Shown here piece by piece: positions 9,029-25,666 of a stretch of 32,000 nt of DNA. The notes below the pieces were generated by a model, which did no database searches, was not told the origin of the DNA, and saw only the letters and a list, made by a program, of their open reading frames with translations. Source of the stretch: Acaryochloris marina S15. Its GTDB lineage: Bacteria > Cyanobacteriota > Cyanobacteriia > Thermosynechococcales > Thermosynechococcaceae. The DNA is taken from assembly GCF_018336915.1 (NCBI RefSeq), contig NZ_CP064923.1:3720001-3752000 (forward strand), given 5' to 3'. Each line of letters opens with the position of its first letter. The first letter of the stretch is position 1. The position numbers and the translations under genes were made by a program.

Positions 9029-10514
9029 GGGCGTATTTAGCGGATCGGGGATGCCTTAGTTTTCGGAATGGTCACCTCTGGGAATAAGGAGTCAAACCGT
9101 TCATTGACCCAGGCAATTCTCAAGATCAGTAAATGGTTGAAACCATCCTCACTCCAGCGCATGCCAACTCCCTTAAAGCGCTGCTGAATCAACCACTTGC
9201 ATGCACTTTCAACCATTCCTGACCCGAGAGGAATCTGTTGCTGTTCAAAGTGCCGATAACGGATGTGGTTATGATGGCGTTGGAAATAAGCCTGCACCTG
9301 GAGCAACGTTGAAAAAGACTTTCCCGTTAACAGTTGTGAGTGAATCAATATCGTCAAGGACCGTAATACAAGTAGGTGTTGCCCGTGTCGCAATTGGTGT
9401 CGCCAGTGCCGGAACCAGGCTTGGGCTTGAGCAGAGCGGGCATCTCCAAACATCGCTTTAGTTGCTCGTGCCAGATGGCCTGCTGAATGAAAAAAGTCGA
9501 GGACTGCCACAGCACAATGAGAGAACAAGGTGCGATAGACTCGCCAGAAGCCTCGTCCCCCATCACTGAGCCAGATGACTTTTGGAGCAGATTCAAAGTC
9601 TTGTTTGTGAGCTTCGAGTTGAAGTAAAGGGATGAACTGGTCGATATCGCCCAATACTGCCACCAGTCTTCGACGCAGTAATTGGGGGACCTCCTTTTTA
9701 GCTCGGGTAACCCGTGTTCCCAGGCGAGCTAAGATGGCGACTTTGACTTCTCGCCACTGGATTTTTCCCTTGGGTGAGTTCGGGGTGGGGCGAAAGGGGA
9801 CCATCACACCATCGGCGGCAATGGCCAAAGGTAGAGCAGATAACATCTCTGAAATCGCTTCACAAGGGGCCTGAGTCCCTGATGATTGAGCGTTGAGTTG
9901 AGCTTCTAATTCCTGCTGAGCTTTGTTACCCACGGATTGCACCCAGTTCCACAAACTGGATGGACTCACGGATAGACCACTCCACTGACCCAGCATCCAA
10001 CTGGCCAGTTCATAGGGCATGAACAGACTCAACAAGCAGCCCAGACGCACCAGTTCTTCGCTGCTGTGCTGATAGGGGGCAATCCCAATGGCTTGATCCA
10101 GGGGAGTCAACAGACTGCCTGGACATCCTTTGGGACAACGGCCCACCCGTCGCTTTCAAGAGATAGTGCCTACCAGTGTCTGCATCTGACGAGATTCCCA
10201 TCCCTTCGAATGTAAGCGGGTTCCGCAGGTAGTACATACAGGCCATACAAATACTGCTTTCGCGCGCCTTGAGAGTTCATCCTCCAGAAGACAGCGAGCT
10301 AGAAACAAGCCCATTTGCAGAACGATATAAACCATCTGACTCAGGCTGGTTGATACTTTGAGTGCTTCAGTTTGTTCTAGAAATTCGTCATGGGCTAGCA
10401 CGGTTAGCAATTGCGATGGTAGGGTCATGATAGTTTTTTGGTTCGGGTACAGGATCTATTGTCCTTGACCCGTTTTTCTTTGAGCCATGCATCCCCGATC
10501 CTTTGCTTACGCCC
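9029..10514 (-). mobile_element. ISKra4-like insertion sequence (1486 bp) with 26-bp IRs and a 9-bp target duplication
   Basis: The IR GGGCGTATTTAGCGGATCGGGGATGC (9029-9054) matches the reverse complement of 10489-10514 at 21/26 positions. A direct repeat CAGACTGAT flanks the element at 9020-9028 and 10515-10523. Confidence 0.8.
9037..10428 (-). pseudogene. ISKra4-family-like DDE transposase interrupted by one in-frame TGA
   Basis: ORFs 10156-10428 and 9037-10146 are in the same frame, separated only by a TGA at 10156-10158 (...GTIS*KRRVGRCPKGC...). The motifs LDFFHSAGHL and GSGMVESACKWLIQQRFKGVGMRWS resemble ISKra4 transposases. The family call is from memory. Confidence 0.7.
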
Positions 10515-10822
10515 CAGACTGATGCAGCCCAAGATAAATAGGGGAATAAGTAGACTTTTCACGAATTCGCTCAAAACCTCCAACCTCTTTAGGATGGACC
10601 ACTGTAATCTCCGTTTGAACCGAGTTTAAAATTGAATAAAAAGCAGTGCACATCACAGTATGGAATCGTTCGCTGTTGCCAAAATAAATATCAAATCAAT
10701 TAATTATTGCCTTGAGTACCTATACGTATCATGGCTGACTATTATTTTTTCGATAGCAGATTGTCATAGGGTGTTCTACCAAGGTCTCGATATCATCTAA
10801 GCACTACCGAGACCTACTTTAT

Positions 10823-11209
10823 TTAACGTTTAAGAAAAAACTCTGCTAGGGCATCATCAAATGCATTAGAGGCGAGTCCTGTCGTGTCATCAATGGAGTC
10901 ATTAAATAAAAGCTCTAGATCTCCAGCAAATTCTTCGTTGGGTACTCCTAAGGTATACATAGAATTTTGAGTAGTGATATATATGTGCATATCCTTAGCA
11001 AAAAATCCATCAATCCTTGAAGTTTTAATTTCTTGCCCTTGAGGATATTTAGGATGATTATAAATGTGACCTACTAAAGCAATCCCTTTCTTGACACACA
11101 CACAAGTCCAGTCTTCTAGTACAGAAGAACACAATGCTCGGCAATCTGATGCCGTCATGCTTGATGATAAATGATCTAGATAAAAATCAATCAATTCGTT
11201 AGAGGTCAT
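10823..11209 (-). CDS. hypothetical protein (128 aa from the ATG at 11209), in the AT-rich island
   Basis: This is the only long ORF here, and its composition looks coding (acidic C-terminus, no low-complexity runs). No family was recognised. The listed TTG at 11230 is less likely than the ATG at 11209. Confidence 0.45.
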   Translation of the reverse strand: MTSNELIDFYLDHLSSSMTASDCRALCSSVLEDWTCVCVKKGIALVGHIYNHPKYPQGQEIKTSRIDGFFAKDMHIYITTQNSMYTLGVPNEEFAGDLELLFNDSIDDTTGLASNAFDDALAEFFLKR

Positions 11210-11662
11210 GATGAATCCACACAAAAACAATCACAAAAGAGAAGAATAATACTCTTAAAAAGATTTTATTCTCTTAGATAATATTTTATTCATCTCGACA
11301 TAATGTCGAACTGAGTAATAATTCTGAACTAGGTTATATTGTCTAGCAAAGTAATAGTTTACATTTGTGTATTTTTGTGTATTTCTTAAAAACTAAGTAA
11401 TTATACTAATGTCATTAGAAAATCAAAAAAAGTGAGTTTATTTGGAGGAGTCTAATATATTGATATCTCCTTATAGCCCTTTGATAGTAATCATTTAAGG
11501 ATTATTTTCGCCAAGCAAAAGATACATGGAAGGATATATGAGCGTATAAATATTTTGAGTATTTTTACTGATTTAAGTCTTTTTTTGTCTCTGTTAAAAC
11601 TAGCTTTAGAGATATTTGTTGTACATTTATAGGTATCTTTAAAGTGAGTTAAACTTATTTGA

Positions 11663-11702
11663 TATTCTGAATAATGTATAAGCTTATACATTATTCAGAA
11701 TA
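11663..11702. repeat. 40-bp perfect loop-less palindrome centred on AAGCTT
   Basis: The sequence is TATTCTGAATAATGTATAAG|CTTATACATTATTCAGAATA. All 20 base pairs were checked pairwise from the centre between 11682 and 11683. The symmetry breaks at 11662/11703. Confidence 0.95.
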
Positions 11703-12605
11703 ATTCGCTCGGTAAAATAAGTATATTTAATGAGGTTTGCTAGCTCAATATGTGTCATCGTTGAGGTTATAGCTATTTCTTCGGAATAAGCCTAATGTAT
11801 CTTCGAAGATGCATGAATTTATATGCAAATAGTTGAAAAGATTGTCTCGGTGTTTTCTAGATAACTGAAATGCCCTGGCATACTGGATATAGAAAATGTT
11901 GTATATCTTTTGATGTCAGTTCTATTAGTCCGACAAACAGTTTTACCTAATTACTCTCAATAAACAGTTCTTAGGAGAACAAAATGATACCGTAGATTCC
12001 TCAAACAACATCCAATTTGTACTCTGTGTACTCTAATCTTGGAGATTATCCAGGAACTACATGCCAAAACTCAACTGTATCTGTTTTGGATTGGCTTCTT
12101 TGAAGTCGTAAATCATCATTGCCAACCTATTATCAGTGATGTCAAACGTGACTTTCCCTGGCAAAAGTCCTGCAAATCTATATTCTCTACCCTCGGCTAA
12201 CTGTCCAATATCTGGGGCAAGCTAGATCAGTGATAAGGAGCTATTGGTTTTACCTGGCTGTGCTTTCAGAAAATCGGGTGTTAAGTCTGGAACTAACAAA
12301 ATATGACCATCAGCGATGAATCATGGATAGCTTCAATGATTACCAAGGAAAAGTGGATCAGCGACGGAGGTAATGTTGATCTCAGCTAGTGTAGATCTAA
12401 TAAAAATCCAGGCTGTAGTTTTTATGCTGCATCATCGCCACATACTGAATTGAAGGGTGCCAAAGCTCAGTCTGATTTTCCTGACTCTCTACCTTTATGG
12501 AAAAGTAGGCGCGGTTTGATTTACCTTGGTTTGGACAATCATCCGACATTCAGCAGGTACTAACCATCAAGGGATAATTTTGAGGTTGTCTCTCAACGCA
12601 AGTCC

Positions 12606-14312
12606 ATGTATTCACCTCAAGAGATAGACGTTCAGGATATTGACCATCTCGGTATTATTGCCGGTATCGTCGATGAGATCGGCATTGTCGAAATAGTGGA
12701 TCGATTATTAGGTACTCACGAGCAAGAGAATGTTAGTTGTGGTCAAGTTGTCAAAGCCCTGATTCTAAATGGTATGGGCTTTTTGAGTGCTCCATTGTAC
12801 TTATTTAGTGAGTTTTTCGAAAGCAAAGCAACCGAGCACTTACTCGGTCAAGGTGTACTGCCAGAGCACCTCAACGATACCCGTATCGGTCGAGTCCTCG
12901 ACAAGCTCTATGCCTATGGTGTGACCCAGATATTTATCCATGTGGCAATGGCAGTCGTTCAGAAATTCGATGTAGCTCTAAGGTGTGCGCATCTAGATGC
13001 GACAAGCCTTAGTGTTGAGGGGCAATACTTAGATAAACCACAGGTTGAGGCGTCAGACGAATCCCCCTCTGCACCTGAGTCCCCCTCCCCTGCACTGGCT
13101 GAATCAGAGGAGCCGATACCCGTGAAAATCACCTACGGCTACTCACGGGACAATCGTCGTGATCTCAAGCAGTTTGTATTGAACCTACTGGTGAGTGGGG
13201 ACGGGGGTATTCCTTTATTTTTACAAGTGGGCAACGGTAATGATGCGGACAAAAGTACGTTTGTGCCTATCATCCATGAATTTAAGCAACAGTGGAGTCA
13301 GCAACAGCCAGAGGTGATTGTTGCTGATAGTGCCCTCTACAGTGCCGACAATCTGCAAGCATTAGGAAGTACATCTTGGATTAGCCGAGTTCCAGCAAGT
13401 TCAACGGCAGCCCAAGACTTATTACAAGGGCTGCCGGGTTCACAGTTTCACCCCAGTGCTCTCAACGGCTATAGCTTTGTCGAAGTATGTAGTACCTATG
13501 GAGAGATTCAACAACGGTGGCTGGTGGTTGAAAGTAAAGCTCGCAGAGACTCTGGACTCAAACAAGTGCAAAAGCGGATTGATCAGGCGTTTAGCCAAAA
13601 AACTACTGCACTTAAAACCCTCTGCAAACAGACCTTCTTGTGCCCTGCAGATGCTTTAGCTGCAGCCCAAGATTTTGGCAAAATCCTCAGGTATCACACC
13701 CTTGACGATCTCAAAATCCACAAAAAACCTCATTATTCAAAGGCTGGACGACCGACAAAAGCAACGGTTGTGACTCACTACACCTATTCTATTGAGGCTA
13801 CCTTAACCCTCAATGAGCCAGTCATCGAACGCTATCGGCGGCAAGCAGGTCGTTTCATCTTAGCCACCAATCTCTTGGAACAAGAGCAATGGAGCAATGA
13901 TGATATTCTGCGCGAGTATAAGAACCAGCAGGCGTGTGAAGGAGGCTTTCGCTTTATCAAAGATCCACTCTTCTTTGCCTCTAGTGTTTTCCTGAAGACA
14001 CCTCGGCGTATCGCTGCCTTAGCCATGATCATGGCCTTGTGTTTGATGGTCTACAGCTTAGGACAACGACAGTTAAGAAATGCACTAGAACAAGTACAAA
14101 CAACTCTCCCTAATCAGAAGGGGAAACAAACTATGAAACCTACGTTACGTTGGATTCTCCAATGCTTTCAGGCCGTCCATTTAGTTTGGCTTGATGGTGC
14201 CAAGCATCTCATCAAGCTCAACAGCAGGCAGCAACTTATCTTGCCGTTCCTTGGGAAGGGCTGTAAAAAATATTATCTGCTCTGCTATAGATCTACAGAT
14301 AAAGATCCGTGA
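12606..14312 (+). CDS. IS1634-family transposase, with a C-terminus altered by the IS630 insertion
   Basis: The N-terminal block DIDHLGIIAGIVDEIGIVEIVD..LG...VSCGQVVKALILNGMGF is typical of IS1634-group transposases. The last 8 codons (YRSTDKDP) are read from IS630 sequence. Confidence 0.85.
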   Translation: MYSPQEIDVQDIDHLGIIAGIVDEIGIVEIVDRLLGTHEQENVSCGQVVKALILNGMGFLSAPLYLFSEFFESKATEHLLGQGVLPEHLNDTRIGRVLDKLYAYGVTQIFIHVAMAVVQKFDVALRCAHLDATSLSVEGQYLDKPQVEASDESPSAPESPSPALAESEEPIPVKITYGYSRDNRRDLKQFVLNLLVSGDGGIPLFLQVGNGNDADKSTFVPIIHEFKQQWSQQQPEVIVADSALYSADNLQALGSTSWISRVPASSTAAQDLLQGLPGSQFHPSALNGYSFVEVCSTYGEIQQRWLVVESKARRDSGLKQVQKRIDQAFSQKTTALKTLCKQTFLCPADALAAAQDFGKILRYHTLDDLKIHKKPHYSKAGRPTKATVVTHYTYSIEATLTLNEPVIERYRRQAGRFILATNLLEQEQWSNDDILREYKNQQACEGGFRFIKDPLFFASSVFLKTPRRIAALAMIMALCLMVYSLGQRQLRNALEQVQTTLPNQKGKQTMKPTLRWILQCFQAVHLVWLDGAKHLIKLNSRQQLILPFLGKGCKKYYLLCYRSTDKDP

Positions 14313-15521
14313 TTAGCTAGGCAGCTTGTGTACCCAAGGTTTTGCAATATTTGCCCATTAAGACAGTAATTTCATTGGGAGTCTGACTAAAGTACAGTAG
14401 CCCCTCATCGACCTGCTGAACTAAGTCATCAAATTGCTTGAAGAACCGTAGGTGTGTGCTGCGTTTTTTGAGTTTCTTCCACAAGAATTCAATTGGGTTG
14501 AAGTCAGGAGAATATGTGGGTAATTGGAAAGGAGTAAGGCGAGCGGATTGCTGGTCAAAGAACTGCTTAGTTGCTTTACTGGTGTGATATCTAGCCCCGT
14601 CCTGAATGAGAATAATATGCTTGTGAGTCTGCTGGAGTACTTGAGTTAGAAAAGCAGTATACCCTTCAGAATTGAAGCGTCCCGTCTGACCTTGATAGAA
14701 GAACTGACCAGAATGATAATCAATTAATCCAAACACCTTGTAAGCCTTCCGTTTACCACTGGTGGGCAATGTTGGCTGGTCTCCACGAAGACTCCAGGTG
14801 TAGCTTAACGACCCCCACTGCGCAAAACTGGCCTCATCCCCAAATAAAATTAGGGCATCTTTGGCTGCTGATAAACGCAAAATCTCAGGCCATTTGTGTG
14901 TCATCCATTCTTGTCGCTTGGCTTCATTGAGATGAGCTGCAACAAACCGTGCTCTTTGAAATGAAAAGCCTAAGTTCCTCAGTAGAGTACTCACATAATG
15001 GGGATGATAGGAAACATTGAAGCGTTTCGCAATCAGGTCTTGAACCATTAATGCACTCCAACAACCACACTCGTATCCAGCTTTGAGCGGACCTGCTTTA
15101 ATCCATGACTTGAGCTGTTGTCGTTGCCGTGGAGTGAGTTTGCTGCGACGTCCTTGAGACGCTTTGTATCTAAAGCTAGCGATACCTCGTTTTAGAAATG
15201 CATGCAGATAATCCCTGATCGTTTGTTCGCCTAGTGCCAATGTTTCAGCTACCTGTGCCACTGAACCACCTTGACCAAGCTGCAATAAAGCACTAATACG
15301 TTTGACCAGACGTAAATTCTGACTCCCGTATGCCTGGCGCAGTTTAGCTTCAATCTTTTTGCGTGTTGATTGGGTAAAGCGCAGTTTGAATTGTGCGAGC
15401 ATACTGGATGACCTCTGATAATCTTGAAATCCTTGCCAGAGCTAAGAGTATCAGGAGCTAGTTACTATATTTAATGAAGATGTAGTGTCGCTAAAACCAC
15501 GGATGCTTTTCTGAAGATCTA
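14288..15521 (-). mobile_element. IS630-family insertion sequence (1234 bp) with a TA target duplication
   Basis: The IR TAGATCTACAGATAAAGATCCGTG (14288-) matches the reverse complement of the right end (TAGATCTTCAGAAAAGCATCCGTG) at about 20/24 positions. TA is present at 14286-14287 and 15522-15523, as expected for IS630/Tc1-mariner elements. Confidence 0.85.
14317..15402 (-). CDS. IS630-family transposase (HTH plus DDE_3)
   Basis: It has N-terminal HTH regions and the DDE region LFGDEASF...ILIQDGARYHTS...YSPDFNPIEFLWKKLK. Confidence 0.9.
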   Translation of the reverse strand: MLAQFKLRFTQSTRKKIEAKLRQAYGSQNLRLVKRISALLQLGQGGSVAQVAETLALGEQTIRDYLHAFLKRGIASFRYKASQGRRSKLTPRQRQQLKSWIKAGPLKAGYECGCWSALMVQDLIAKRFNVSYHPHYVSTLLRNLGFSFQRARFVAAHLNEAKRQEWMTHKWPEILRLSAAKDALILFGDEASFAQWGSLSYTWSLRGDQPTLPTSGKRKAYKVFGLIDYHSGQFFYQGQTGRFNSEGYTAFLTQVLQQTHKHIILIQDGARYHTSKATKQFFDQQSARLTPFQLPTYSPDFNPIEFLWKKLKKRSTHLRFFKQFDDLVQQVDEGLLYFSQTPNEITVLMGKYCKTLGTQAA

Positions 15522-15852
15522 TAGCTAGCCTGCTGAATGTAGGATCATTAGACCTCTTGTGTAATTGATCACAAGATTATGAATGGAGTCTCAAATATAT
15601 AGACAGAATTGGCCCAGTTTATGAGCCAATGGCATATCGTGAAATGAATATTGCAAGAGGTCTAGTAGTTCTTCGTCTAATGCATTTAAATTGATAGCCA
15701 TGTTCTGGACATCGGTATCAAACTGAAGCTGGATACCGATGGGAGGCAGAATGCTACAAATCTAGGACTCCAAACCTTTTGAGACCTATTAACAGTTAGA
15801 GTATTGAGGCATGACCTATAGGCTACAAGGGCGTGAGATGTTTTAAAGATCC

Positions 15853-15908
15853 GTTCTAGTTACTTCATCCCAGACTATAAATGTAGCCTGGGATGAAGTA
15901 ATTAGAAC
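15853..15908. repeat. long hairpin / inverted repeat (21-bp arms with one mismatch, 14-nt loop)
   Basis: GTTCTAGTTACTTCATCCCAG (15853-15873) pairs with CTGGGATGAAGTAATTAGAAC (15888-15908). The inner 14 bp are perfect. Confidence 0.85.
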
Positions 15909-16058
15909 CCTATCTAAAGCAATATTGCAGCCGATATCACTGAGAGCCATTGCCTCAAGTTTTTGATGCTACCTCTAATCCAGAAAGTCATTCCAAGGCT
16001 CAAGAAGATGTCTCACAGCCTTAAATAATTAGCAGCTGTAACTCTAAGAGAGATTCGT

Positions 16059-16571
16059 TTAGCTATGAACGGGCTGAATTGAGCGTTCAGCAACTTTTTG
16101 AGTCGCTGCATATAGTTCACGGATTTGTTCTTCGGAAGAGTAAAGTCTTCGGTCTCGTAAGATGCTGAATGCCTTAGCATCCTCTTGGGCAATCTTCGAA
16201 TCAAGAAAATATGCCATATCTTCTCTACCGGGTTTCCCCCATTCCAGAACTGCCCAGCGAATCAAGCCTTTAAAAATGTCATGATCCCAGGCAAAGGGCA
16301 CATGACGGTGAAGATTCGCTTGTTGATGTAATAACTCTGAATAATGCTTGACGAGAGATGGATCATCAGAGCTCATCGTATTTTTGTAGTTCGCAAACAT
16401 TTGAGCATCTTCTTGAGCGGTTTCTTCATTTACAAAATAAGCAACATCTCTTCTGGGGGGTAAGGCCTGTGGCCCTCCAAATTTTTCGCCAAGGCTAGAA
16501 CACTCTACCACTAGCCAATGAATAGGTGGGTGCGCAACTTTGTGGTCCCACTCTAACGCGACGTATACCAT
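16059..16571 (-). CDS. hypothetical protein built from two tandem copies of an about 60-aa unit
   Basis: Residues 7-62 and 94-138 align: E/AWDH..(8)..W.V.E ... R.D.AYF......AQEDA..F. It has an ATG start and is the only long ORF in the region. No family was recognised. Confidence 0.6.
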   Translation of the reverse strand: MVYVALEWDHKVAHPPIHWLVVECSSLGEKFGGPQALPPRRDVAYFVNEETAQEDAQMFANYKNTMSSDDPSLVKHYSELLHQQANLHRHVPFAWDHDIFKGLIRWAVLEWGKPGREDMAYFLDSKIAQEDAKAFSILRDRRLYSSEEQIRELYAATQKVAERSIQPVHS

Positions 16572-17718
16572 AATTTCTTACCCTAACTGATTATTCATAG
16601 AGAACAATTTCAGGTTTAAACTATCAATATCTCAGAAAAAATACAACTGGAAAATATTTACTATAATCCTGCTTAAGTTATTGCCATTACTGAATAAAAG
16701 TAGCTAAAAATACAAAAACTTTGTTACAAAAAAGACAACGAAATATTTACTGTAAAATATTTAATATAAAACCATATATTTCTCTTTTGATAATTAAATA
16801 TCTCTATCTCTAGCGACCCAATCTATTGATATTGAGCGAATAGTGAATGTATCGATTTACATCTTCTCAACAATGATCAGTGAGGTGGGAAAGAGCCCAA
16901 AACCTAAAAGCCATAAACTCTGTGTAAGCTGGGTTGAGCTTGCACAGTGGAGGACTATGGCCCAACTTATGACTAAAGAAATAGATTTCTGATTCTAAGG
17001 GACACTTGGAAGGAATTAATTGATAGATGAGACTCGCAGTTGAACGTTTTTCAATATTGACTGCAGCAAAGAATGAATGTTCTAGCTTCAAAAAAGATGA
17101 TTTGAAACGGTAATCGATTGATTTGGAGTACTTGCAGCTGTTTATATAAAACATCATTTTTCTCTATCGATTGAATGGATGGGGTGCATTCAGCTAGTCG
17201 ACATTTACTGCTTCTAAGGCAAAATAAAATCCGAACATGAAACAAATAGTCCAAACGCTCATGATTTGAGTAAATACGAATGCCAGCATAGTTGGTTATC
17301 CTTTTCTTTCTGCGGAAGTTGTGGGTTGGTTCTGCACTGCTGTGCTTTGTTGAATTCACTATCCTCTAAATTTTCAGCAGAAAAAATCCTGAAAAGTTCA
17401 GATTCTTTCAGGTATGAGTTCAGGTATTGATATGGGCAATTAGCTGACTGATGCCTTGTTGGCAGGGTTTGCCCTTTTTTGAAGACAGTGGATATCTTCG
17501 AAGAACACTCGAATTGCCTATCTGATAACTGCCATTGTGTTGCCTAGGACAGATTTAGCTGCCATGAAACGTTGATGAGATCGCAAACCCATCCAAACCG
17601 TTGACTAAAACCATCATTCTCTAGAAACATAAACACTTCTCCGTCTTCAGACAGCCTCGCATAGAGCCAACTCTTCATCCGACTCACAATCAACAAAGAT
17701 AGATGCAACCAAAGTCAT

Positions 17719-17852
17719 GTTTAACGGGGGTATCAATACAGATAAATTCTCGCCCCCCTGACGTAAATGAGGCTTGTTCTATTTTGTCGTTTTTCTAACC
17801 CTCAGAATAGAAGGTTGCTTTCTGAACGTCTGAATTGAGGAAAAGGCTAGAA
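17719..17852 (-). repeat. attC-like junction element C (downstream of the Uma2 gene)
   Basis: On the plus strand it reads TTAACGG 17721-17727, GGTTG 17813-17817, CTGAACGT 17822-17829 and GGCTAGAA 17845-17852. In the gene direction it ends CCGTTAAAC, which fits GTTRRRY. An internal hairpin pairs GGGGG 17726-17730 with the C-run at 17753-17758. Confidence 0.4.
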
Positions 17853-17938
17853 GTTCATTGCTTCTGCTGCAATGCAAACATCAGGTGTGTGCGGATGTGA
17901 CTTGCCATCAGTTTATTCCTGGCTGACAACTTCAATCC

Positions 17939-18502
17939 TTACTCCAGCAGCCAAGCAAATAACTCTCTTACCGTAAGCTGTAACTCGTTGGCAAAAGAGG
18001 GTGCAGGAATGATTTTATCTGGCTCATCCAGGACTTCAGGTTCTTGCTTGGGACGATAGACAAACACTGTTTGTTCACCTGGGTCGATTAACCAACCCAC
18101 TTCGGTTCCATGCTGCAAACAGTGAAGAATATTCTTTGTGACCTTTGTTTGGCTTTGATTGGGAGATAGGATCTCAACTACCCAATCTGGTGCAGTAGAA
18201 AACGCGTTGGCAATTTCCCCATTCTGATCGCGGGGAATTCGGTGCCAAAGAAACACTGCAATATCAGGAACGATTGAACGATGGCCAAATGTACAGCGCA
18301 GTTCAGGAAAGGCACGAGCAATACGTTTGGATTTAACGACCCCATTGATAGCAGGTACAAGTTCTCCTTGAATGACGCTATGTTTCCCTTGGGGTATTGG
18401 CTTTTGAATAATTTGGCTATCAAGGTATTCATTGGCAGGTTTCGTTTCTGGCAATTCCAAAAACTCTGCCAAGGTCAGCGTTTTTGAGGAGGGCTGTACC
18501 AT
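17939..18502 (-). CDS. Uma2-family (DUF820) putative restriction-endonuclease-like protein
   Basis: It shows the typical cyanobacterial Uma2 layout: LTLAEFLELPE...EYLDSQI...P..KHS..QGEL...PDIAV...APDWVVEILSP. Confidence 0.85.
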   Translation of the reverse strand: MVQPSSKTLTLAEFLELPETKPANEYLDSQIIQKPIPQGKHSVIQGELVPAINGVVKSKRIARAFPELRCTFGHRSIVPDIAVFLWHRIPRDQNGEIANAFSTAPDWVVEILSPNQSQTKVTKNILHCLQHGTEVGWLIDPGEQTVFVYRPKQEPEVLDEPDKIIPAPSFANELQLTVRELFAWLLE

Positions 18503-18650
18503 TTAGGTTTACTCTTTGCCCGTAAGTTTGGAAACTCAACACTATTTTATCTAGAAACTGTATGGGGAGTACGTTTTTGCTGGGGATTACGACTATTGCG
18601 CCTGACAAATCACTAGAAAAGCTGGATTCTCTTTCATAATCAACGACCCA

Positions 18651-18754
18651 AGCCAGCTAACTCCAATTAACGGCCTTGCCTCACTGGCGTGAGTAGACCT
18701 CAAAAAACAATATGGCTATGGTTACTGAACGTCCGGTGCAGGGGTTGGCTAGAA
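18651..18754 (-). repeat. attC-like junction element B (between the TA cassette and the Uma2 gene)
   Basis: On the plus strand it reads TTAACGG 18667-18673, GGTTAC 18720-18725, CTGAACGT 18725-18732 and GGCTAGAA 18747-18754. The outer arms CCAGCTAAC (18653-18661) and GTTGGCTAG (18744-18752) pair at 7/9. The element starts 17 nt after the antitoxin stop. Confidence 0.45.
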
Positions 18755-18770
18755 ATGGATTTAGCTCAAA

Positions 18771-19064
18771 CTAAGGTGTTGGTTGAATGGTTAGCTTGAA
18801 CCCAAGCGCTTTAGTAACTTCAGCTATCGTCGAAAATGTGGGGTTACCATCAGGAGACAGCGCTTTATATAGCCCTTCTCTACTCAAACCTGTATCTCGG
18901 GATAGCTGACTCATATTTTTAGCTCTAGCGACTACCCCTAGGGCATGAATAATTAAAGCAGGATCATCTTCGGCTTCTTCCAGGCATGCTTCTAGATATA
19001 GCTGAATATCTTCTTCTGTTTTGAGATGTTCGGCTGAATCCCAGCGGGTTATGCTTATGGCCAT
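18771..19064 (-). CDS. addiction-module antidote protein (HTH, HigA-like family)
   Basis: The sequence ...AEHLKTEEDIQLYLEACLEE.DDPALIIHALGVVARAKNMSQLSRDTGLSREGLYKALS..GNP.F.T matches the probable-antidote family that pairs with the killer family upstream. Confidence 0.85.
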   Translation of the reverse strand: MAISITRWDSAEHLKTEEDIQLYLEACLEEAEDDPALIIHALGVVARAKNMSQLSRDTGLSREGLYKALSPDGNPTFSTIAEVTKALGFKLTIQPTP

Positions 19065-19067
19065 AAC

Positions 19068-19364
19068 TCAATCCTCCAACTGTTTAGCAATTTCTTTAGC
19101 CCTTTTGATGTCAGCATTTTATGAGCCTTTATCACCACCAGAAAGCAATATGACAACCACTGGACCACGTTGTATAAAGTAAACCCTGTAACCAGGACCA
19201 TAATGAATGCGAAGTTCGCTAACACCTTCCCCGACGGGGGCGACATCTCCAAAGTTGCCAATCTCGATACGGTCAATACGTGCTTGTATTCGCGCTTTAG
19301 CCTTTCGATCTCGCAGTTTCTTGAACCAATTAGCAAAAATGTCTGTTTGGCGCACCTCAATCAT
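19068..19364 (-). pseudogene. addiction-module killer protein (RelE/ParE superfamily) with a premature in-frame TAA
   Basis: The sequence is MIEVRQTDIFANWFKKLRD..AKARI..RIDRIE.GNFGD..PVGEGVSELRIHYGPGYRVYF......VVILLSGGDKGS*. The frame continues as NADIKRAKEIAKQLED to a TGA at 19068-19070, which abuts the antitoxin ATG. The TAA is at 19119-19121. Confidence 0.8.
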
Positions 19365-19422
19365 GTGTCAACCATAGTTAACGAGCAATAAGCTGTCAAC
19401 TACAGTTATCAGTCAAGATGAT

Positions 19423-19566
19423 TCTAGGCTGGGTCAAATTTTAACGGCTCGGCATCAGGGGCGCGAGAATTATTTTAAAGCGTTGACCAGTAGCGTGTTT
19501 CGAGCGTCCTGCCTGCATGCCATGGTTAGACTACAGCACAGAACATGCAAGACTTATACGCTAGAG
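19423..19566 (-). repeat. attC-like junction element A (between the OLD-family gene and the TA cassette); best-folding copy, core 19439-19531
   Basis: In the gene direction the core begins GTCTAAC (fits RYYYAAC) and ends GTTAAAA. About 22 bp pair between 19440-19468 and 19498-19530. An unpaired spacer (GGCTC vs CAT) lies after the terminal box, and all bulged bases (19502-03, 19507, 19510-11, 19516) are on one arm. The shared blocks are TTAACGG 19441-19447, GGTTAG 19524-19529, CAGAACAT 19539-19546 and CGCTAGAG 19559-19566. Confidence 0.55.
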
Positions 19567-19574
19567 GCGATCGC
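19567..19574. repeat. HIP1 palindrome GCGATCGC (one of seven exact copies in the window)
   Basis: Exact copies were read at 2473-2480, 2770-2777, 8446-8453, 19567-19574, 24762-24769 and 29547-29554, plus this one. HIP1 enrichment is a known cyanobacterial hallmark. Confidence 0.8.
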
Positions 19575-19860
19575 CCAAAACCAGAAAACGGTACTCACAA
19601 AAGTATAACTGGAGCAAAATGAAGACGGGACAAAGACAAGAAACACTTACTAAGCCATCAAAAATTACAACCAAAACGAGATAGTGGTAACAACAGACAA
19701 ATGTATGGCTGAGACGAGAATATGATATCAGTGTTTTGGCTAATATTCCCAATCACTGAACTTAGGAGGTTTTTAAACATAACAAAAATATACAGTGTTT
19801 CGTTTCAGTAAGCTTGTTAATTTAGTCACTATCTAATCAACATCTTGCTCGCACAATGCC

Positions 19861-22065
19861 TCATACTACTATTTCTTGAATCACTGATTTAATTTCTGAA
19901 TCAATTTCATCTTTCCTCATCAAGCTTGCCAACTTAGAAGTATCTTTTTCCTTTTTAAAGCGTAGATTATATTCTTTACAAACTTCATCTAATAAAAGAT
20001 CACCAGGAACTATATCCATCTTCTTAGATTCCCAAATATTTTCTATTTCGTCAATTTTACTAGTGTAAATAGATTCAAGATTTCTTTTCTCTGTTTCTAA
20101 CTGACTAATCATTGATTGAATTGATTCAGTGATTTTATCAACTCCCTCTTGATCTTGGAATTCTTCAAAAATTGATTTAGTTTCTGGATAAATGGGTTTG
20201 CAGACTATTTTTACTACTCGTTTGCAAATTGCAAATTGCTTTAAATTTTCTGCACATCCATTAATTTTATCTTGTACTTCGTTTTCTGTTGGTAATTCTT
20301 GATTAAGAGTATTCGATATTTTTCGTTTATACTCAATGAAGCTTCTTACTGCTCTCGGACAAATTAGATAGTTCTCCACTTCCCTCTTATTTAATACTTT
20401 AAGTTTTGCATTCTCCCCAAGCCTGGCTTGCATTTTCAAAATCTCAGAATCGTCCTTTTCATCTCTATCTATGAGGAACCACATCCTGACTTGACGTTTA
20501 GCTAGAAAGTTTAAAGTTTCTTCTGTAGCAAAATGAGCAAAATTACGTGCTCCACCCATACGAATAAATCCTACATTTGCTTGACTAAGATTAACGCCTA
20601 GTACAGAAGCCCATTCTCGAATTGCATCCTCGTCTGTTATACCCTCTACAAAAACAAGACGGTCAAACATAAATAGAGAGCTTAATCTAATACCAAGCTC
20701 TTGTGGAATCTTTGCTTCTGCCTCTCCAATATCAATTTGACGTATCTGAGTTGAATTTGGTTTCGTAACCAAATATACATTATTCATTTCAGCAGTATCT
20801 AAGAAATTAGTTGAGTGAGTTGTTATAAAAACCTGGCAATCACAACTTATACGTTTCAAATATCGCATCATACTTGTCTCAAGAGCTGGATGCAAATGTA
20901 TTTCTGGCTCTTCAACAAGTAGTATATCTGGATGCTCAAACTCAACATCTAGTAATAGTCTTAAAGCTTCCTTTATGCCCGACCCATTTACTCCCACCAA
21001 AAAATTATCGACATCCATTTCGGCAGACATCTGATTTGTAGATATTGAGGAGTCGCTTTCAAATGCATCAACATACACACCTAATAATGCTGAAACTGTT
21101 TCTTGGATGTTTTTAAGAGCTTCAAATCCCCCTCTTCGCGTTTTTAATGAAAGAAGTCGTTCAGCCTCTTCTTTACCTATTCTCTTACGTTTCTCAGTAA
21201 GATAGAGAACGTTAATTTCACCTATTCTCTTCAAAAGAGTTTTGACGTAATGAGGTATTGATGCTTCTTCTCCAGCAAAAGTTCCTATTTTATTACTCAG
21301 GACTTTATTCACAGTAGATATTGATTCTTCTTTATAGCTAGTAGACAGATCAGGGATTGCACTTTTTAGATCTTCAATAGATGCTTGCGTCCCAACTCTT
21401 TCTTCAAGAATTTTTATGGTGTCACCATCAATTTTTCTAGCTAAATACTCAAGAGGGGGACGGTCACGTAAGTCAGGTCGAATATATCTTCTAAGACCGT
21501 CTAAATCTAGAGAATTCAAGTCCTCTGAAATATTATCTAACTCTTTAGATCGTAAAAAATTATCATATAGTTCCAAAGCACTTCTTTCATCTACACTCAA
21601 AATGATTCCTTCACAATTAAAAAGTGCTACTCCAGATTTAGGAATTCCTCCTAAACTCACTTTTTGAATATAGCTAAAGGTAGATGGTGGAGGCATAACA
21701 ACAAGTGCCACAGAAAGATGAAGTGATGGATTAATTCCATCCACTGCATTTTTCATTTGCGGTGCTTCTGTAGCAATATCTCTTATCAAAGCATCTCTTT
21801 CAGATAATTTCAAAGAAAACACTAGATTAATCTCTATAGGATATTGAGATTCTTTGTTAAAGAAATCAATTTCCTTTCCAATATTAGGGCTGAGATTTAA
21901 TACTTCCCCATTATTTATGCATTTAAAGAACGCATTTATAGCAGAAAGAGCACTTGATTTTCCAGAGTTATTTTTGCCTATAAGGACATTGAATTCTCCA
22001 CAATCATCTAGTTTCGCATCTTCAATACTGCGAAATCTTTTGATTATTACATTTTCAAGCTTCAT
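19861..22065 (-). CDS. OLD-family nuclease-like protein: N-terminal ABC/AAA_15-type ATPase fused to a Toprim (DUF4435-like) domain with a long helical C-terminal tail
   Basis: Motifs seen are Walker A GKNNSGKS (aa 30-37), signature-like NGSGIKEAL (aa 360-368), Walker B ILLVEEPEIHLHP (aa 381-393) and H-loop FITTHS (aa 413-418). The Toprim motifs are VFVEGITDE (aa 471-479), LIDRDEKDD (aa 531-539) and REVENYL (aa 561-567). The protein is 734 aa. Confidence 0.8.
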   Translation of the reverse strand: MKLENVIIKRFRSIEDAKLDDCGEFNVLIGKNNSGKSSALSAINAFFKCINNGEVLNLSPNIGKEIDFFNKESQYPIEINLVFSLKLSERDALIRDIATEAPQMKNAVDGINPSLHLSVALVVMPPPSTFSYIQKVSLGGIPKSGVALFNCEGIILSVDERSALELYDNFLRSKELDNISEDLNSLDLDGLRRYIRPDLRDRPPLEYLARKIDGDTIKILEERVGTQASIEDLKSAIPDLSTSYKEESISTVNKVLSNKIGTFAGEEASIPHYVKTLLKRIGEINVLYLTEKRKRIGKEEAERLLSLKTRRGGFEALKNIQETVSALLGVYVDAFESDSSISTNQMSAEMDVDNFLVGVNGSGIKEALRLLLDVEFEHPDILLVEEPEIHLHPALETSMMRYLKRISCDCQVFITTHSTNFLDTAEMNNVYLVTKPNSTQIRQIDIGEAEAKIPQELGIRLSSLFMFDRLVFVEGITDEDAIREWASVLGVNLSQANVGFIRMGGARNFAHFATEETLNFLAKRQVRMWFLIDRDEKDDSEILKMQARLGENAKLKVLNKREVENYLICPRAVRSFIEYKRKISNTLNQELPTENEVQDKINGCAENLKQFAICKRVVKIVCKPIYPETKSIFEEFQDQEGVDKITESIQSMISQLETEKRNLESIYTSKIDEIENIWESKKMDIVPGDLLLDEVCKEYNLRFKKEKDTSKLASLMRKDEIDSEIKSVIQEIVV

Positions 22066-22680
22066 ATTTTTATCGATGTTATTTCCTTAGAGAGGTATTT
22101 TTCGAGAGATAGGAGGAAGAATAGAATTTAAGCAGTAACCCTTACAACAATAAAATATATTTTATGATTCAAGTATGACTTTATTAAACAATACTTCAGA
22201 CAGTTATAAATGCAACGCCTAGTATTCCTGATGTTTTCGTTGAGTCTAAAATCTTGAAAGCCTTATTTTTTCTTCAAATTTAAAACAATCCGAGCTATTA
22301 CGGCTCAATTTCTCTATCAATAATTTCAAACCATTACTTTAATAATGAATTGGCTCTATCTTTACATTATTTCCTGACGAGTAATTCTACAATCTCACTC
22401 TCACTAAACATAAGGACTAACTATAATTAGAAGGCAAATTTCCTCCTAACACGAAATAAATTAATAGCTTGTCTGCTCCTTAAAGCCAAGCCTCTTCTAC
22501 ATTAGTACTACAGCAGAAAGAGTACGTATTACGGAAATTTCCCGATATGCAAAATTGTAGTTGATTATCTAAAAACAATATAGAAAAAGCATTTCTAGCA
22601 TCTTTATCATGCAGCAATGAAGAATGTTAATGGACAAAATAACTGTATAAGTCCCAATATCGGTTGTTATCAGACACACA

Positions 22681-23033
22681 ATGCCACCCCAAAAACTCCT
22701 TGACCAAGTCCGTGATGTAATGCGAACCAAGCATTATGCGTACAGTACTGAAAAAACTATGTGCAGTGGATCCGGCACTATATTATCTTCCACAACAAAC
22801 GTCATCCTAAAGAAATGGCTGAACCTGAAGTTGAAGCGTTTCTGACTCATCTAGCCGTAAGCGAACATGTTTCTGCCTCAACCCAAAATTAAGCCCTCTG
22901 TGCCCTGATATTTCTGTACCGATACGTTCACAAATAGCCTCTGACTGAAACGACTGAAGCAGCGCGTGCCCAACGCTCACAACATCTACCCACAGTCTTT
23001 ACCCCTGACAAAGTAAGCCGACTCCTCCAGTAA
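22681..23033 (+). pseudogene. intI: N-terminal remnant (about 118 codons) of an integron-integrase-like tyrosine recombinase
   Basis: Conceptual translation gives MPPQKLLDQVRDVMRTKHYAYSTEKT[-1 nt near 22758]YVQWIRHYIIFHNKRHPKEMAEPEVEAFLTHLAVSEHVSASTQN*ALCALIFLYRYVHK*PLTE..RSQHLPTVFTPDKVSRLLQ*. The stops are at 22890-22892 (TAA), 22935-22937 (TAG) and 23031-23033. It is collinear with the IntI1 N-terminus ([21 protein letters not shown]..RHP...EVEAFLS.LA....VS.ST..QAL.AL.F.Y...L......RLPVVLTPDEV). The catalytic domain is absent. Confidence 0.8.
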
Positions 23034-23098
23034 GGAAAGTTTAGACCAGATATTCTCTAGAATAGTGAAGCAAACGCAGACCTTCAGGAGTAATAGTA

Positions 23099-25666
23099 GT
23101 GGAGTCCCGTTACAATCCCACCGAGATTGAACCCAAATGGCAAGCAAGCTGGGCCAAACAGGGGCTAGATGCAACTCCTGAAGATACCAGCAAACCCAAA
23201 TTCTATGCCCTGTCCATGTTTCCCTACCCCTCAGGTAGCTTACACGTCGGCCATACCCGCAACTATGTAATTACCGACGTCATCGCCCGCCTCAAGCGGA
23301 TGCAGGGCTACCGAGTTCTCCAGCCCATGGGTTGGGACGCCTTTGGTCTACCTGCCGAAAATGCCGCCATCGCTCGGGGGATTCATCCCGCCGAGTGGAC
23401 CTATGCCAACATGGCGCAAATGAAAAAGCAGCTAGAGCCTCTGGGACTCTCCATTGACTGGAGCCGGGAAATCGCCACCTGCTCTCCTGACTACTATCGG
23501 TGGACCCAGTGGATCTTTCTGCAATTTCTGGATATGGGACTGGCTTACCAGAAAGAAGCCGCTGTCAACTGGGACCCGGTGGACCAAACTGTTCTTGCTA
23601 ACGAGCAGGTGGATAATGAAGGTCGCTCTTGGCGATCCGGGGCCAAGGTGGAGCGCAAACTGCTGCGCCAGTGGTTCCTAAAAATTACCGACTATGCGGA
23701 AGAACTCTTAACCGACTTAGATAAACTGACCGGCTGGCCTGAACGGGTCAAAACCATGCAGGCCAACTGGATTGGCAAATCCGTGGGGGCCTATCTGGAG
23801 TTCCCAATTGTGGGTATGGATGACAAGGTAGCCGTATTCACGACCCGCCCTGATACGGTCTATGGCGTCACCTATGTGGTGCTGGCCCCAGAACATCCCC
23901 TCACTCCCCAAGTCACCAGCAAAGCCCAGAAAAAAGCGGTGGATAAATTTATTGAAGAAGTTGGGGCCGAGAGCGAAATGGATCGCACGGCGGAAGACAA
24001 GCCTAAGAAAGGCATTCCCACAGGTGGCAAAGCCATCAACCCCTTTACGGGGGAAGAAATTCCCATCTGGATTGCCGACTACGTACTGTATGAGTACGGG
24101 ACAGGTGCGGTGATGGGGGTGCCCGCCCATGACACACGAGACTTTGTCTTTGCCAAGCAGAATAAGCTGCCGATTCAAACGGTAATTGTGCCTGAAGGTA
24201 GTGATGCGGATACGCCCTTAGAAGCCGCCTATACCGAACCTGGATTGATGGTGAACTCCGGTGAATTTGATGGCAAAGCCTCCACCGAAGGCAAGCAGGC
24301 CATTATTGCCAAAGCCGAGACCAAAGGCTGGGGAAAGGCTAGGGTGCAATATCGTCTGCGGGATTGGCTGATTTCCCGACAGCGCTATTGGGGCGTGCCG
24401 ATTCCGGTGATTCACTGTCCCAAGTGTGGGGCTGTGCCCGTACCCGAAGCCGATCTGCCCGTGGAGCTGCCCGAAGATGTGGAGTTCTCGACTCAAGGTG
24501 GATCGCCCCTGGCCAAACTAGAATCCTGGGTCAATGTCGCTTGTCCCACCTGCGGGGCAGATGCCAAACGGGAAACCGATACCATGGATACCTTTATTGA
24601 TTCGTCTTGGTATTTTCTTCGTTATCCCGATGCCAAAAATGACAAAGCAGTCTTTGATTCAGCGAAAGCCAATGATTGGCTACCCGTTGATCAATATGTA
24701 GGTGGGATTGAACATGCGATTTTGCACCTATTATATTCGCGATTTTTTACGAAAGTGATGCGCGATCGCAAACTCCTCAACTTCGATGAACCCTTCAAAA
24801 AGCTGCTCACCCAAGGGATGGTGCAAGCTCTCACCTATAAAAACCAGGAGACGGGGAAGTATATTGCACCTATTAATGTTGATGCTGACGATCCTAAGGA
24901 TCCAGAAACAGGTGCACCCTTGGAAGCCTTTTACGAAAAGATGTCCAAGTCTAAATACAATGGCGTCCCCCCGGAAGAGGTCACCAATAAGTACGGAGCC
25001 GATACCGCCCGTCTATTCACCTTATTTAAGGCCCCCCCTGAAAAAGATCTGGAGTGGGAAGGCGCAGATGTGGAAGGTCAATTCCGGTTTCTGAATCGGG
25101 TTTGGCGACTGGTCAGTGAACATGCCGCCCAAGCCAAGGGCAAGAAAGCAAAGGTAAATAAAGCCAAGCTCTCGAAAACAGAGAAGGAACTGCGAAGATC
25201 CGTTCATATTGCCATCAAAGAAACCAGTGAAGATTTAGACGGCGATTATCAGTTCAATACTGCCGTATCCGAACTGATGAAGCTGAGCAATGCCCTCAGT
25301 GATTCCAAGGAGAAAGCGTCTCCCGTCTATGCCGAAGGTGTGGAAACCTTGCTGCTGCTCCTCACCCCCTTTGCCCCCCATATCAGTGAAGAGCTGTGGG
25401 AGAACCTAGGGCATTCCGAGTCGATTCTGGGTCAGCCTTGGCCTCAGGTGGATAAAGAGGCTCTGGTGGCCGATGAAATTACCTTAGTGATTCAAATTAT
25501 GGGCAAAACCCGAGGCACTATCCAAGTGCCGGCTGGAGCCAGCCGGGAAGATTTGGAACAGCTCGCCCGCGAGTCGGAAGTGGCCCAGCGGTATATTGCT
25601 GACAAAGAAGTGAAAAAGGTGATTGTCGTTCCGGGCAAGCTGGTGAACTTTGTGGTGCCAAAATAG
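23099..25666 (+). CDS. leuS: leucine--tRNA ligase
   Basis: It has the HIGH-type motif [11 protein letters not shown], the KMSKS motif and an 855-aa class Ia layout with a CP1 editing insertion. The GTG start is preceded by AGGAG about 9 nt upstream. Confidence 0.96.

Follow-up and report, generated by a model that had tools for sequence, protein, structure and literature searches.

The genome of the cyanobacterium Acaryochloris marina S15 contains, on contig NZ_CP064923.1 (assembly GCF_018336915.1), a gene for a 734-residue protein in which an ABC-type ATPase is followed by a Toprim nuclease domain. The stretch of DNA analysed here, called the window in the following, comprises 32,000 nucleotides (positions 3,720,001 to 3,752,000 of the forward strand), and all coordinates are counted from its first letter. 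The question that this locus raises is what such a protein does for its host: it could be a solo nuclease of the OLD family that defends the cell, a fused form of the PARIS system (merged AriAB), a housekeeping protein or the first cassette of an integron, the integrase of which has left a remnant nearby. We favour, with a probability of roughly 70%, a horizontally acquired, single-polypeptide OLD-family nuclease of Class 1 that on its own protects the cell from phages or other foreign DNA.

The gene is an intact open reading frame (ORF) of 734 codons with an ATG start, and its product is 100% identical to the annotated A. marina protein WP_212662248.1/QUY41042.1, the public names of which are "ATP-dependent endonuclease" and "AAA family ATPase". 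Its annotation as an OLD-family nuclease is already public and the protein belongs to a known kind; we found no mention of the accession in the literature. The conservation of its motifs was assessed in an alignment of 32 full-length homologues sharing 48–84% identity, and the following parts were distinguished:

19861–22065, minus strand: complete ORF of the OLD-family ATPase–Toprim protein, 734 amino acids plus stop codon; 32 of 32 aligned homologues begin at the same M-K/R-L-E.
20731–22065, minus strand: ABC-type ATPase region, residues 1–445 (Pfam AAA_15/AAA_21); AAA_15 matches residues 1–421 with 6.7e-25.
21955–21978, minus strand: Walker A motif GKNNSGKS, residues 30–37; G30, K31, N32, N33, G35 and S37 are invariant, K36 is present in at least 90%.
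21280–21648, minus strand: helical insertion in the ATPase, residues 140–262; helices at 160–252 in the AF2 model, the most variable region of the family.
20902–20988, minus strand: signature-like NGSG (360–363) to Walker B/D-loop ILLVEEPE (381–388); N360, G361, G363, E366, E385, E386, P387 and E388 are invariant.
20815–20817, minus strand: H-loop H417 within THSTNF, invariant in the 32-member alignment.
20359–20670, minus strand: Toprim nuclease domain, residues 466–569 (PF20469); E474, D478, D533-R-D535-E536, R561, E562 and E564 are invariant.
19864–20358, minus strand: C-terminal helical domain, residues 570–734; K580, W678, G688, D689, R702, K705 and D708 are invariant.

The original prediction, made from the letters of the sequence and a list of ORFs, had placed the motifs that it listed exactly (GKNNSGKS at 30–37 with K36, NGSG at 360–363, LLVEEPE at 382–388, H417, E474, DRDEKDD at 533–539 and ENYL at 564–567), and it had named a lack of conserved Toprim acidic residues as an outcome that would speak against it; these residues are invariant across the 32 homologues. 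The conserved motif THSTNFLD also served as the search pattern for homologues. Mean column conservation is 0.74–0.84 in the catalytic cores, 0.41 in the insertion at residues 140–262 and 0.44 in the middle of the tail.

It can be stated securely that the protein is an OLD-superfamily ATPase–Toprim enzyme with a helical domain after the Toprim, because Pfam domains, conserved motifs, Foldseek matches and profile matches to proteins in the PDB agree. The N-terminal ABC ATPase has a Walker A, a signature-like motif, a Walker B and an H-loop, and the C-terminal Toprim carries the conserved Glu and DxD. Pfam assigned OLD-like_TOPRIM (PF20469) to residues 466–513 with 27.5–28.7 bits (cut-off 23.2), and AAA_21 also matched the ATPase part; when the C-terminal half was searched alone, no Pfam family was found for the tail (570–734). 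The earlier label "DUF4435-like" for the nuclease module has to be dropped, as OLD-like_TOPRIM is the only assignment that Pfam gives. The extra tail of about 165 residues, in contrast, is real: it comprises residues 570–734, is predicted to be helical and belongs to a model of the C-terminal 290 residues with a pLDDT of 87.6 and a pTM of 0.82 (78.8 pLDDT for the full-length AF2 model).

A structure prediction and its comparison with known OLD-type proteins had been proposed as a check and bore the assignment out. Against the PDB, the full-length model retrieved the retron Eco8 OLD protein first (3.8e-12), together with GajA and Thermus scotoductus OLD (Ts OLD) at 4e-12 to 1e-11, and after the OLD-type proteins the heads of SMC and Rad50. 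The C-terminal model matched the C-terminal regions of class 2 OLD proteins first (6NJV and 6NK8, 1e-3 to 4e-3, TM 0.5–0.57 on the target), then AriB (8UX9_A, 1.5e-2, probability 0.94) and then Ts OLD. When the family profile was compared with the PDB sequences, GajA came first (8e-15), followed by Eco8 OLD (1e-11) and Ts OLD (9e-10); AriA (8ux9_B) was seen only with 0.0057 over 45 residues, and the profile of the C-terminal part found no match among these sequences. There was no significant viral match for the C-terminal model among the BFVD folds.

OLD nucleases are classified by genetic context: Class 1 proteins are encoded by single genes, Class 2 with GajB, Class 3 with a retron reverse transcriptase (PMC10568477, PMC12392090, PMC11464382), and Class 4 is PARIS, which is mostly split and occasionally merged (PMC10568477, PMC12392090, PMC11464382). 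In the window, an integrase fragment and leuS lie on the upstream side of the gene, a RelE/ParE–antidote pair and a Uma2 gene on its downstream side. Neither a helicase nor a reverse transcriptase nor a gene for DUF4435 or a separate Toprim is adjacent, as judged from the ORFs of the window and the families searched, in line with what had been stated from the sequence, and Rfam detected no retron non-coding RNA in the window. We extended the survey to 45 other genomes of many phyla, taking the first four ORFs to either side of the homologous gene, and compared the resulting 347 neighbour ORFs all against all by BLAST. No neighbour family recurs in these genomes except for synteny among three Nostoc strains; the sole neighbour cluster that reaches seven loci takes varying positions with up to two members per locus, which is not the behaviour of a fixed partner, and six further contigs did not reveal a recurring partner either. 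The gene is a true solo gene. Since no neighbour is conserved, the protein is by genetic context a Class 1 OLD nuclease, and because the classes are defined by context, its distance from P2 Old lowers the relatedness and leaves this assignment as it is. Of the two architectures that the original prediction had offered, a solo nuclease of the class 1 type or a fusion like AriA–AriB, the former is the better fit, as the protein has no DUF4435, only weak similarity to AriA and a background score on the AriAB model.

The resemblance to the established Class 1 proteins (P2 Old, Ts OLD with structure 6P74, and Vc OLD of Vibrio cholerae) lies in the single chain with an N-terminal ABC ATPase that contains a helical insertion and a C-terminal two-metal Toprim, in the solo gene without helicase, reverse transcriptase or other fixed partner, in horizontal mobility and in the Pfam combination of AAA_15 and OLD-like_TOPRIM. 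On the other hand, the A. marina protein has 734 residues versus 586 in P2 Old and 528 in the chain of 6P74, and its additional helical C-terminal domain of about 165 residues has invariant residues of its own. In sequence, the protein proved not to be close to either P2 Old or Ts OLD: the similarity to P2 Old covers about 150 columns, and the PADLOC model "Old" gives 84 bits with partial coverage, as opposed to 712 bits for P2 Old.

Other branches of the superfamily come close in single respects. The full-length fold is nearest to the retron Eco8 OLD protein (Class 3), which is of similar size (about 750 residues), and retron_eff_Eco8 is the best NCBIfam match, but it scores 52.7 bits against a cut-off of 250, and neither a reverse transcriptase gene near the A. 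marina gene nor a retron RNA accompanies it. GajA and the C-terminal regions of class 2 OLD proteins (6NK8, 6NJV) share the Toprim followed by a helical domain and provide the best sequence match among solved structures as well as the best fold match for the nuclease region (1e-3). A GajB or UvrD-like helicase, however, is found beside the gene neither here nor in the 45 other genomes, and the distance from the Toprim Glu to the DxD is compact in the A. marina protein, with 59 residues from E474 to D533. In GajA this distance is about 130 residues (E379 to D511).

The family is large and spread patchily over distant phyla, including one archaeon. The initial database search yielded 671 relatives, the top 120 of which were mostly full length (about 730–790 residues) with few shorter ones. 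When the C-terminal profile was searched exhaustively, it returned 319 clusters (50% identity) at E ≤ 1e-30, a number that rose to 686 with the limit at 1e-10 and to 1774 with the limit at 1e-3, and as this search of representatives was saturated by the family itself, these numbers describe family size and not the nearest outgroups. In a collection with one genome per species, full-length homologues occur in the cyanobacteria Nostoc, Aulosira, Microcoleus, Okeania and Richelia; elsewhere they are present in Herpetosiphon and other Chloroflexi, in Terriglobia/Acidobacteriota, in many Streptomyces and other actinomycetes, in Bradyrhizobium and Rhizobium, and furthermore in Verrucomicrobia, Planctomycetota, Bacillota and the archaeon Methanothrix. 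The relatives found in that collection did not include an Acaryochloris genome. The Methanothrix homologue is full length with 49% identity (L025, 10001–12223). On a Promethearchaeia contig (L080, 4002–5918) the same type of ATPase is fused to a Schlafen AlbA_2 domain in place of the Toprim. In 2.9 million viral contigs, as in the phage and plasmid collections, no close family member turned up.

A more distant relative, a protein of 719 residues encoded on a Bacillus thuringiensis plasmid, aligns with 30% identity over everything between residue 286 and the final tail helix, so that the C-terminal tail is ancient within this architecture. Its gene adjoins one that carries the annotation of a retron-system HNH endonuclease, itself preceded by a gene for an AAA ATPase, and a DUF262 gene. 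Neither close to P2 Old nor, as shown below, a demonstrable member of PARIS, the family is best regarded as a separate long-form clade of solo OLD nucleases.

In all 45 genomes examined (L011–L070), the G+C content of the homologous gene lies below that of its flanks, by 1 to 22 points, for instance 0.51 versus 0.73 in Streptomyces and 0.47 versus 0.67 in Bradyrhizobium. Such a pattern is explained either by continually recent transfer or by selection for low G+C; in hosts of very high G+C the homologue stays near 0.51. In addition, one and the same protein of 734 residues (P0008) is encoded behind two different upstream neighbourhoods, on contigs L089 (1183–3387) and L090 (1700–3904). The DNA of the two is 99.5% identical starting about 825 nucleotides upstream of the gene; farther upstream, one has DUF4926 and DUF433 genes and the other a ParE-like gene, and both neighbourhoods are rich in toxin–antitoxin genes. 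Together with the patchy occurrence, which includes an archaeon, and the lack of another Acaryochloris among the relatives found, the low G+C in 45 of 45 genomes and the two neighbourhoods of P0008 mark the gene as horizontally acquired, and the family bears the signatures of repeated horizontal transfer.

These properties also bear on the proposal that the protein does not serve defence at all and acts instead in housekeeping DNA repair or chromosome maintenance, in the manner of RecF, SbcC, Rad50 or Cran1, or in the maintenance of a mobile element. Models for RecF, Rad50 and SMC do match the N-terminal P-loop region, the OLD-family ATPase Cran1 acts in the cell cycle (PMC12796447), and the signal of defence islands around the homologues is weak. 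The RecF and Rad50 matches, however, are confined to 43–48 residues (about 45 at the N-terminus) with 16–26 bits, far under cut-offs of 172–1000, so that the placement in a housekeeping RecF/SbcC-like family, named beforehand as a possible refutation, was not obtained. Moreover, the gene is accessory, without another Acaryochloris among the relatives found and with patchy occurrence across phyla, and it stands out as foreign in composition in each of the 45 genomes, whereas synteny and a composition adapted to the host would be expected of a housekeeping gene. We regard a non-defence role as highly improbable.

The most detailed comparison is demanded by PARIS. If the protein were a merged AriAB (Class 4 OLD), its ATPase would sense a phage anti-restriction protein, an Ocr-like trigger, and its Toprim would cut tRNA anticodon stem-loops and thereby stop translation, resulting in abortive infection. 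Merged ariAB genes are known from bioinformatics (PMC11464382); an experimentally characterised one was not found in the literature. Our comparison is based on profile scores and folds. In architecture the two agree, as an AAA_15-type ATPase is fused to a compact Toprim followed by a helical region, and the PADLOC model for AriAB (694 positions) is of similar length. The spacing of E474, D533xD535 and E562/E564 resembles that of the Toprim segments 19–43, 80–87 and 109–115 of AriB (PMC12409363), and AriB was found by Foldseek with the probability of 0.94 given above. The PADLOC run that had been proposed as a check likewise placed AriAB first for the protein as a whole (1.3e-34, 118 bits). Nuclease and tail are aligned end to end by this PADLOC model alone (residues 380–730 onto positions 332–688; 1.9e-11 for the C-terminus alone), and it is the best model also for the Bacillus homologue and for a further relative (L064).

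The weight of this score became apparent upon calibration. P2 Old reaches 712 bits on its own model, 115 bits on AriA/AAA_15 and 108 bits on GajA, which sets the cross-family background at 70–115 bits; because P2 Old scores about 100 bits on foreign OLD-type models, 118 bits for AriAB are at the level of the superfamily background. The check thus delivered AriAB as the best match, but not at a score that distinguishes it from the superfamily at large, and the lesson for annotation is that a best match to PADLOC "AriAB" at about 100 bits should not be taken as PARIS. The separate AriB model was not matched by PADLOC. The DUF4435 signature (PF14491) is missing, in searches with E up to 1 for the whole protein and up to 10 for the C-terminal region, and neither the Bacillus homologue nor any of three distant relatives of full length has it; every one of these matches OLD-like_TOPRIM instead. 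Only very faint similarity links the protein to AriA and AriB of E. coli: AriA, an ATPase that forms hexamers and has insertions for binding the trigger, gave E = 0.0057 over 45 residues, compared to 8e-15 for GajA, and is outside the top 50 fold matches, and the C-terminal regions of class 2 OLD proteins fit the nuclease fold slightly better than AriB. Finally, the release of an effector, the core of the PARIS mechanism, is impossible in a fusion. By profiles and folds, the family does not appear as a demonstrable member of PARIS; the fused AriA–AriB-like architecture offered by the original prediction is weakened, and we consider fused PARIS unlikely.

For the reading as a Class 1 OLD nuclease, a mechanism can be proposed by analogy with Ts OLD, GajA and Eco8 OLD. 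The ABC ATPase heads would pair via the variable helical insertion (residues 140–262), giving a homo-oligomer; this oligomeric state we infer from these relatives, and the insertion is a putative dimerisation or sensor module in view of the dimerisation role of its counterpart in Ts OLD and GajA (PMC10568477). ATP would sit at the interface of two heads, with Walker A (K36) on one side and the NGSG signature on the other; nucleotide binding and hydrolysis (E386, H417) may set the conformation of the enzyme and control the nuclease. In the Toprim, E474, D478, D533, D535, E536, E562 and E564 would carry out two-metal phosphodiester cleavage. The C-terminal helical domain, with K580 and the cluster of W678, G688–D689, R702 and K705, may contribute to the binding of the substrate or to regulation. 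K580 at the start of the tail may be a catalytic or phosphate-binding lysine; such a lysine is present in class 2 OLD structures. As ATPase and nuclease are covalently joined, activation has to take place in cis, through a change of conformation, and cannot depend on a separate effector, whereas in PARIS AriB is set free from AriA. With respect to the substrate, analogy gives roughly even odds to the nicking or degradation of DNA, as by Vc OLD, Ts OLD and GajA, and to tRNA cleavage, as by AriB; P2 Old also perturbs tRNA charging (PMC12392090).

A variant of this mechanism would take the family of about 735 residues as a distinct class of OLD proteins and its tail (K580, W678, G688–D689, R702, K705, D708) as the in-cis module for regulation or substrate selection of a PARIS-like, tRNA-targeting abortive-infection enzyme that works without effector release. 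We judge this rather unlikely; if it were true, it would show how a fused AriAB-type protein is held inactive and then switched on.

Class 1 OLD proteins are defined as single genes (PMC10568477), and P2 Old and Vc OLD, the only ones among them with demonstrated anti-phage activity, protect against phages (PMC12392090). The single-gene anti-phage candidate that had been proposed stands insofar as the protein is a solo OLD ATPase–Toprim enzyme with intact motifs and no partner, while its activity against phages is what we infer. Some homologues do have neighbours of the defence type: the Bacillus plasmid gene lies next to the annotated retron-system HNH endonuclease and the DUF262 gene, and toxin–antitoxin genes surround close relatives as well as the A. 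marina gene. Several points weigh against a defensive Class 1 nuclease. Only about eight of 149 neighbour ORFs match defence models in PADLOC (mad2 twice, HEC-06, Orf5, PD-T4-6 and mad6 once each), although Class 1 OLD genes likewise lack a strong association with defence islands (PMC10568477). No characterised OLD is close to the protein: hhalign gives 95% probability for P2 Old, but over no more than 154 columns, and the PADLOC scores all stay at the level of the superfamily background. The chain is also 150–200 residues longer than P2 Old and Ts OLD. Furthermore, the archaeal Cran1 provides an example of an OLD-family ATPase with a non-defence role (PMC12796447).

The remaining question is whether the gene owes its presence to an integron. 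The original prediction had described it as the integrase-proximal cassette, situated in AT-rich DNA between an attC-like site and a recombinase remnant, with a long non-coding leader and a strikingly A-rich tail. The flanking features are the following:

22681–23033, plus strand: intI pseudogene fragment, about 112 N-terminal codons with one frameshift and two stops; a neighbour, not a working part.
22066–22142, minus strand: proximal upstream region of about 77 nucleotides, about 80% identity with the closest relatives (L089–L093).
22143–22680, no strand assigned: remaining AT-rich leader, locus-specific, without similarity to the flanks of close homologues.
19575–19700, plus strand: A-rich, T-poor 3′ flank, not conserved in relatives; folding z = 0.18, not significant.

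As far as composition and neighbours are concerned, the description was accurate. The gene has a G+C content of about 0.34 in a window of about 0.47, a gap of 615 bp (22066–22680) separates it from the recombinase remnant, and the segment 19575–19700 consists of 50.8% A and 11.9% T, the highest A–T skew in the window. The remnant is real, decayed and of the integron-integrase type at its N-terminus: it matches Phage_int_SAM_4 (5.6e-31), the integron integrase model TIGR02249 (6.2e-38, positions 1–112 of 315) and, far more weakly, XerD (9e-7).

It is conceivable that the OLD gene is the first cassette next to intI, captured and expressed via integron recombination as in sedentary chromosomal integrons, in which defence genes are stored. 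The divergent orientation of the integrase fragment, 615 bp upstream of the gene, corresponds to the classical layout, the RelE/ParE toxin–antitoxin pair and the Uma2 gene that follow on the same strand are typical cassette-like cargo, and defence cassettes are known in integrons (bioRxiv 10.1101/2024.07.02.601686); the integron preprint of Darracq et al. was examined for cassettes of PARIS or OLD type, but "Paris" occurs in it only as the name of the city. Against this stands that no attC, the imperfect palindrome (R″-L″…L′-R′, 57–141 nucleotides) that ends a cassette on its 3′ side, was found at 15400–23100, nor next to the gene, in scans for boxes, arm pairing, folding and repeats, from which a very divergent attC could escape. 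The strict R″/R′ consensus gave one pair in this interval (16960–17045), which folds poorly, and the best score of a relaxed scan with arm alignment equalled the median of shuffled sequences. A repeated family of attC type between the putative cassettes is lacking, and the sole significant hairpin, at 19366–19412 (z = −2.67), belongs to the palindromes in the promoter of the toxin gene.

The inverted repeat at 19480–19574, perhaps the element that had been taken for an attC-like site, folds no better than shuffled sequences (z = +0.65). Part of this repeat is formed by the palindrome GGCGATCGCC (19566–19575), which we take to be of the cyanobacterial HIP1 type.

A functional intI with attI is also missing, as intI is cut down to codons 1–112 of 315 with a frameshift and stops, and no integrase is conserved beside the homologues in the 45 other genomic contexts. 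Finally, the unit common to the close relatives is the ORF with 77 nucleotides upstream and 24 nucleotides downstream, without an attC: nucleotide similarity (80%) to the closest relatives ends at 22142 on the upstream side and at 19837, 24 nucleotides past the stop codon, on the downstream side. The leader and the A-rich tail thus belong to the local DNA and not to the system, and the proximal 77 nucleotides (22066–22142) are, judged by this conservation, probably the 5′ untranslated region or proximal promoter of the transferred unit. Neither the attC-like site nor the status of the gene as an integrase-proximal cassette could be upheld, and we consider capture as a cassette very unlikely.

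The 615-bp leader and the A-rich tail had also been tried as parts of the system itself and were rejected for the same limits of similarity. Promoter-like matches in the leader are no commoner than in shuffled sequences. The stretch, which is T-rich when read on the minus strand, contains a very hydrophobic ORF of 63 codons with a TTG start (19561–19752, minus strand; mean Kyte–Doolittle value +1.28), downstream of the OLD gene and in the same orientation. It has no NCBIfam match and may either reflect nothing but the composition or encode a small membrane peptide.

Overall, the locus looks like a decayed accessory region beside leuS, with the intI fragment, toxin–antitoxin genes, Uma2 and three insertion sequences (IS), and not like a working integron array. 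Close relatives of the gene are likewise placed among toxin–antitoxin genes. The type II toxin–antitoxin pair of the window (18771–19412, minus strand) consists of a RelE/ParE-family toxin (19119–19364, TIGR02683, 2e-34) and its antidote (18771–19064, minus strand, TIGR02684, 2.5e-36). Two tandem palindromes, GTCAACCATAGTTAAC and GTCAACTACAGTTATC (19366–19410), overlap a sigma-70-like promoter (10 of 12 matches) upstream of the toxin gene; because they overlie this promoter match directly 5′ of the gene, they are probably the operator of the pair. The Uma2-family putative restriction endonuclease is encoded at 17939–18502 (minus strand, PF05685, 1.3e-37), in the orientation that the OLD gene and the toxin–antitoxin pair also have.

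Farther away, two IS are nested. The outer one is bounded by 21-nucleotide inverted repeats (12537–12557/15529–15549) and carries a transposase with DUF4277 and DDE_Tnp_1 (12606–14312), and the inner one has an IS630-type DDE_3 transposase (14317–15402) between 31-nucleotide inverted repeats (14284–14314/15495–15525). An ISKra4-family transposase is encoded at 9037–10146 (minus strand; NF033572, 8.1e-66); it covers model positions 89–421 of 422 and is N-terminally truncated or has a late start. A second AT-rich block at 10500–12500 (G+C 0.30–0.35), which may be another foreign insert, contains a perfect palindrome of 40 nucleotides (11663–11702) and an ORF of 135 amino acids (10823–11230, minus strand) without a Pfam or NCBIfam family.

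Class 1 is the least understood branch of a widespread defence superfamily, and a review of the field asks whether solo OLD proteins provide broad defence and how single-gene fusions resembling AriAB work (PMC10568477). The family described here is a clean test case for these questions, as it is large (at least 319 clusters at 50% identity), conserved from end to end and of foreign composition wherever it was found. For cyanobacteria, in which few systems have been tested, the gene of A. marina is a candidate defence gene, and the interest of the family as a whole lies in its being a large, uncharacterised long-form clade that bears on how solo or fused OLD nucleases work.

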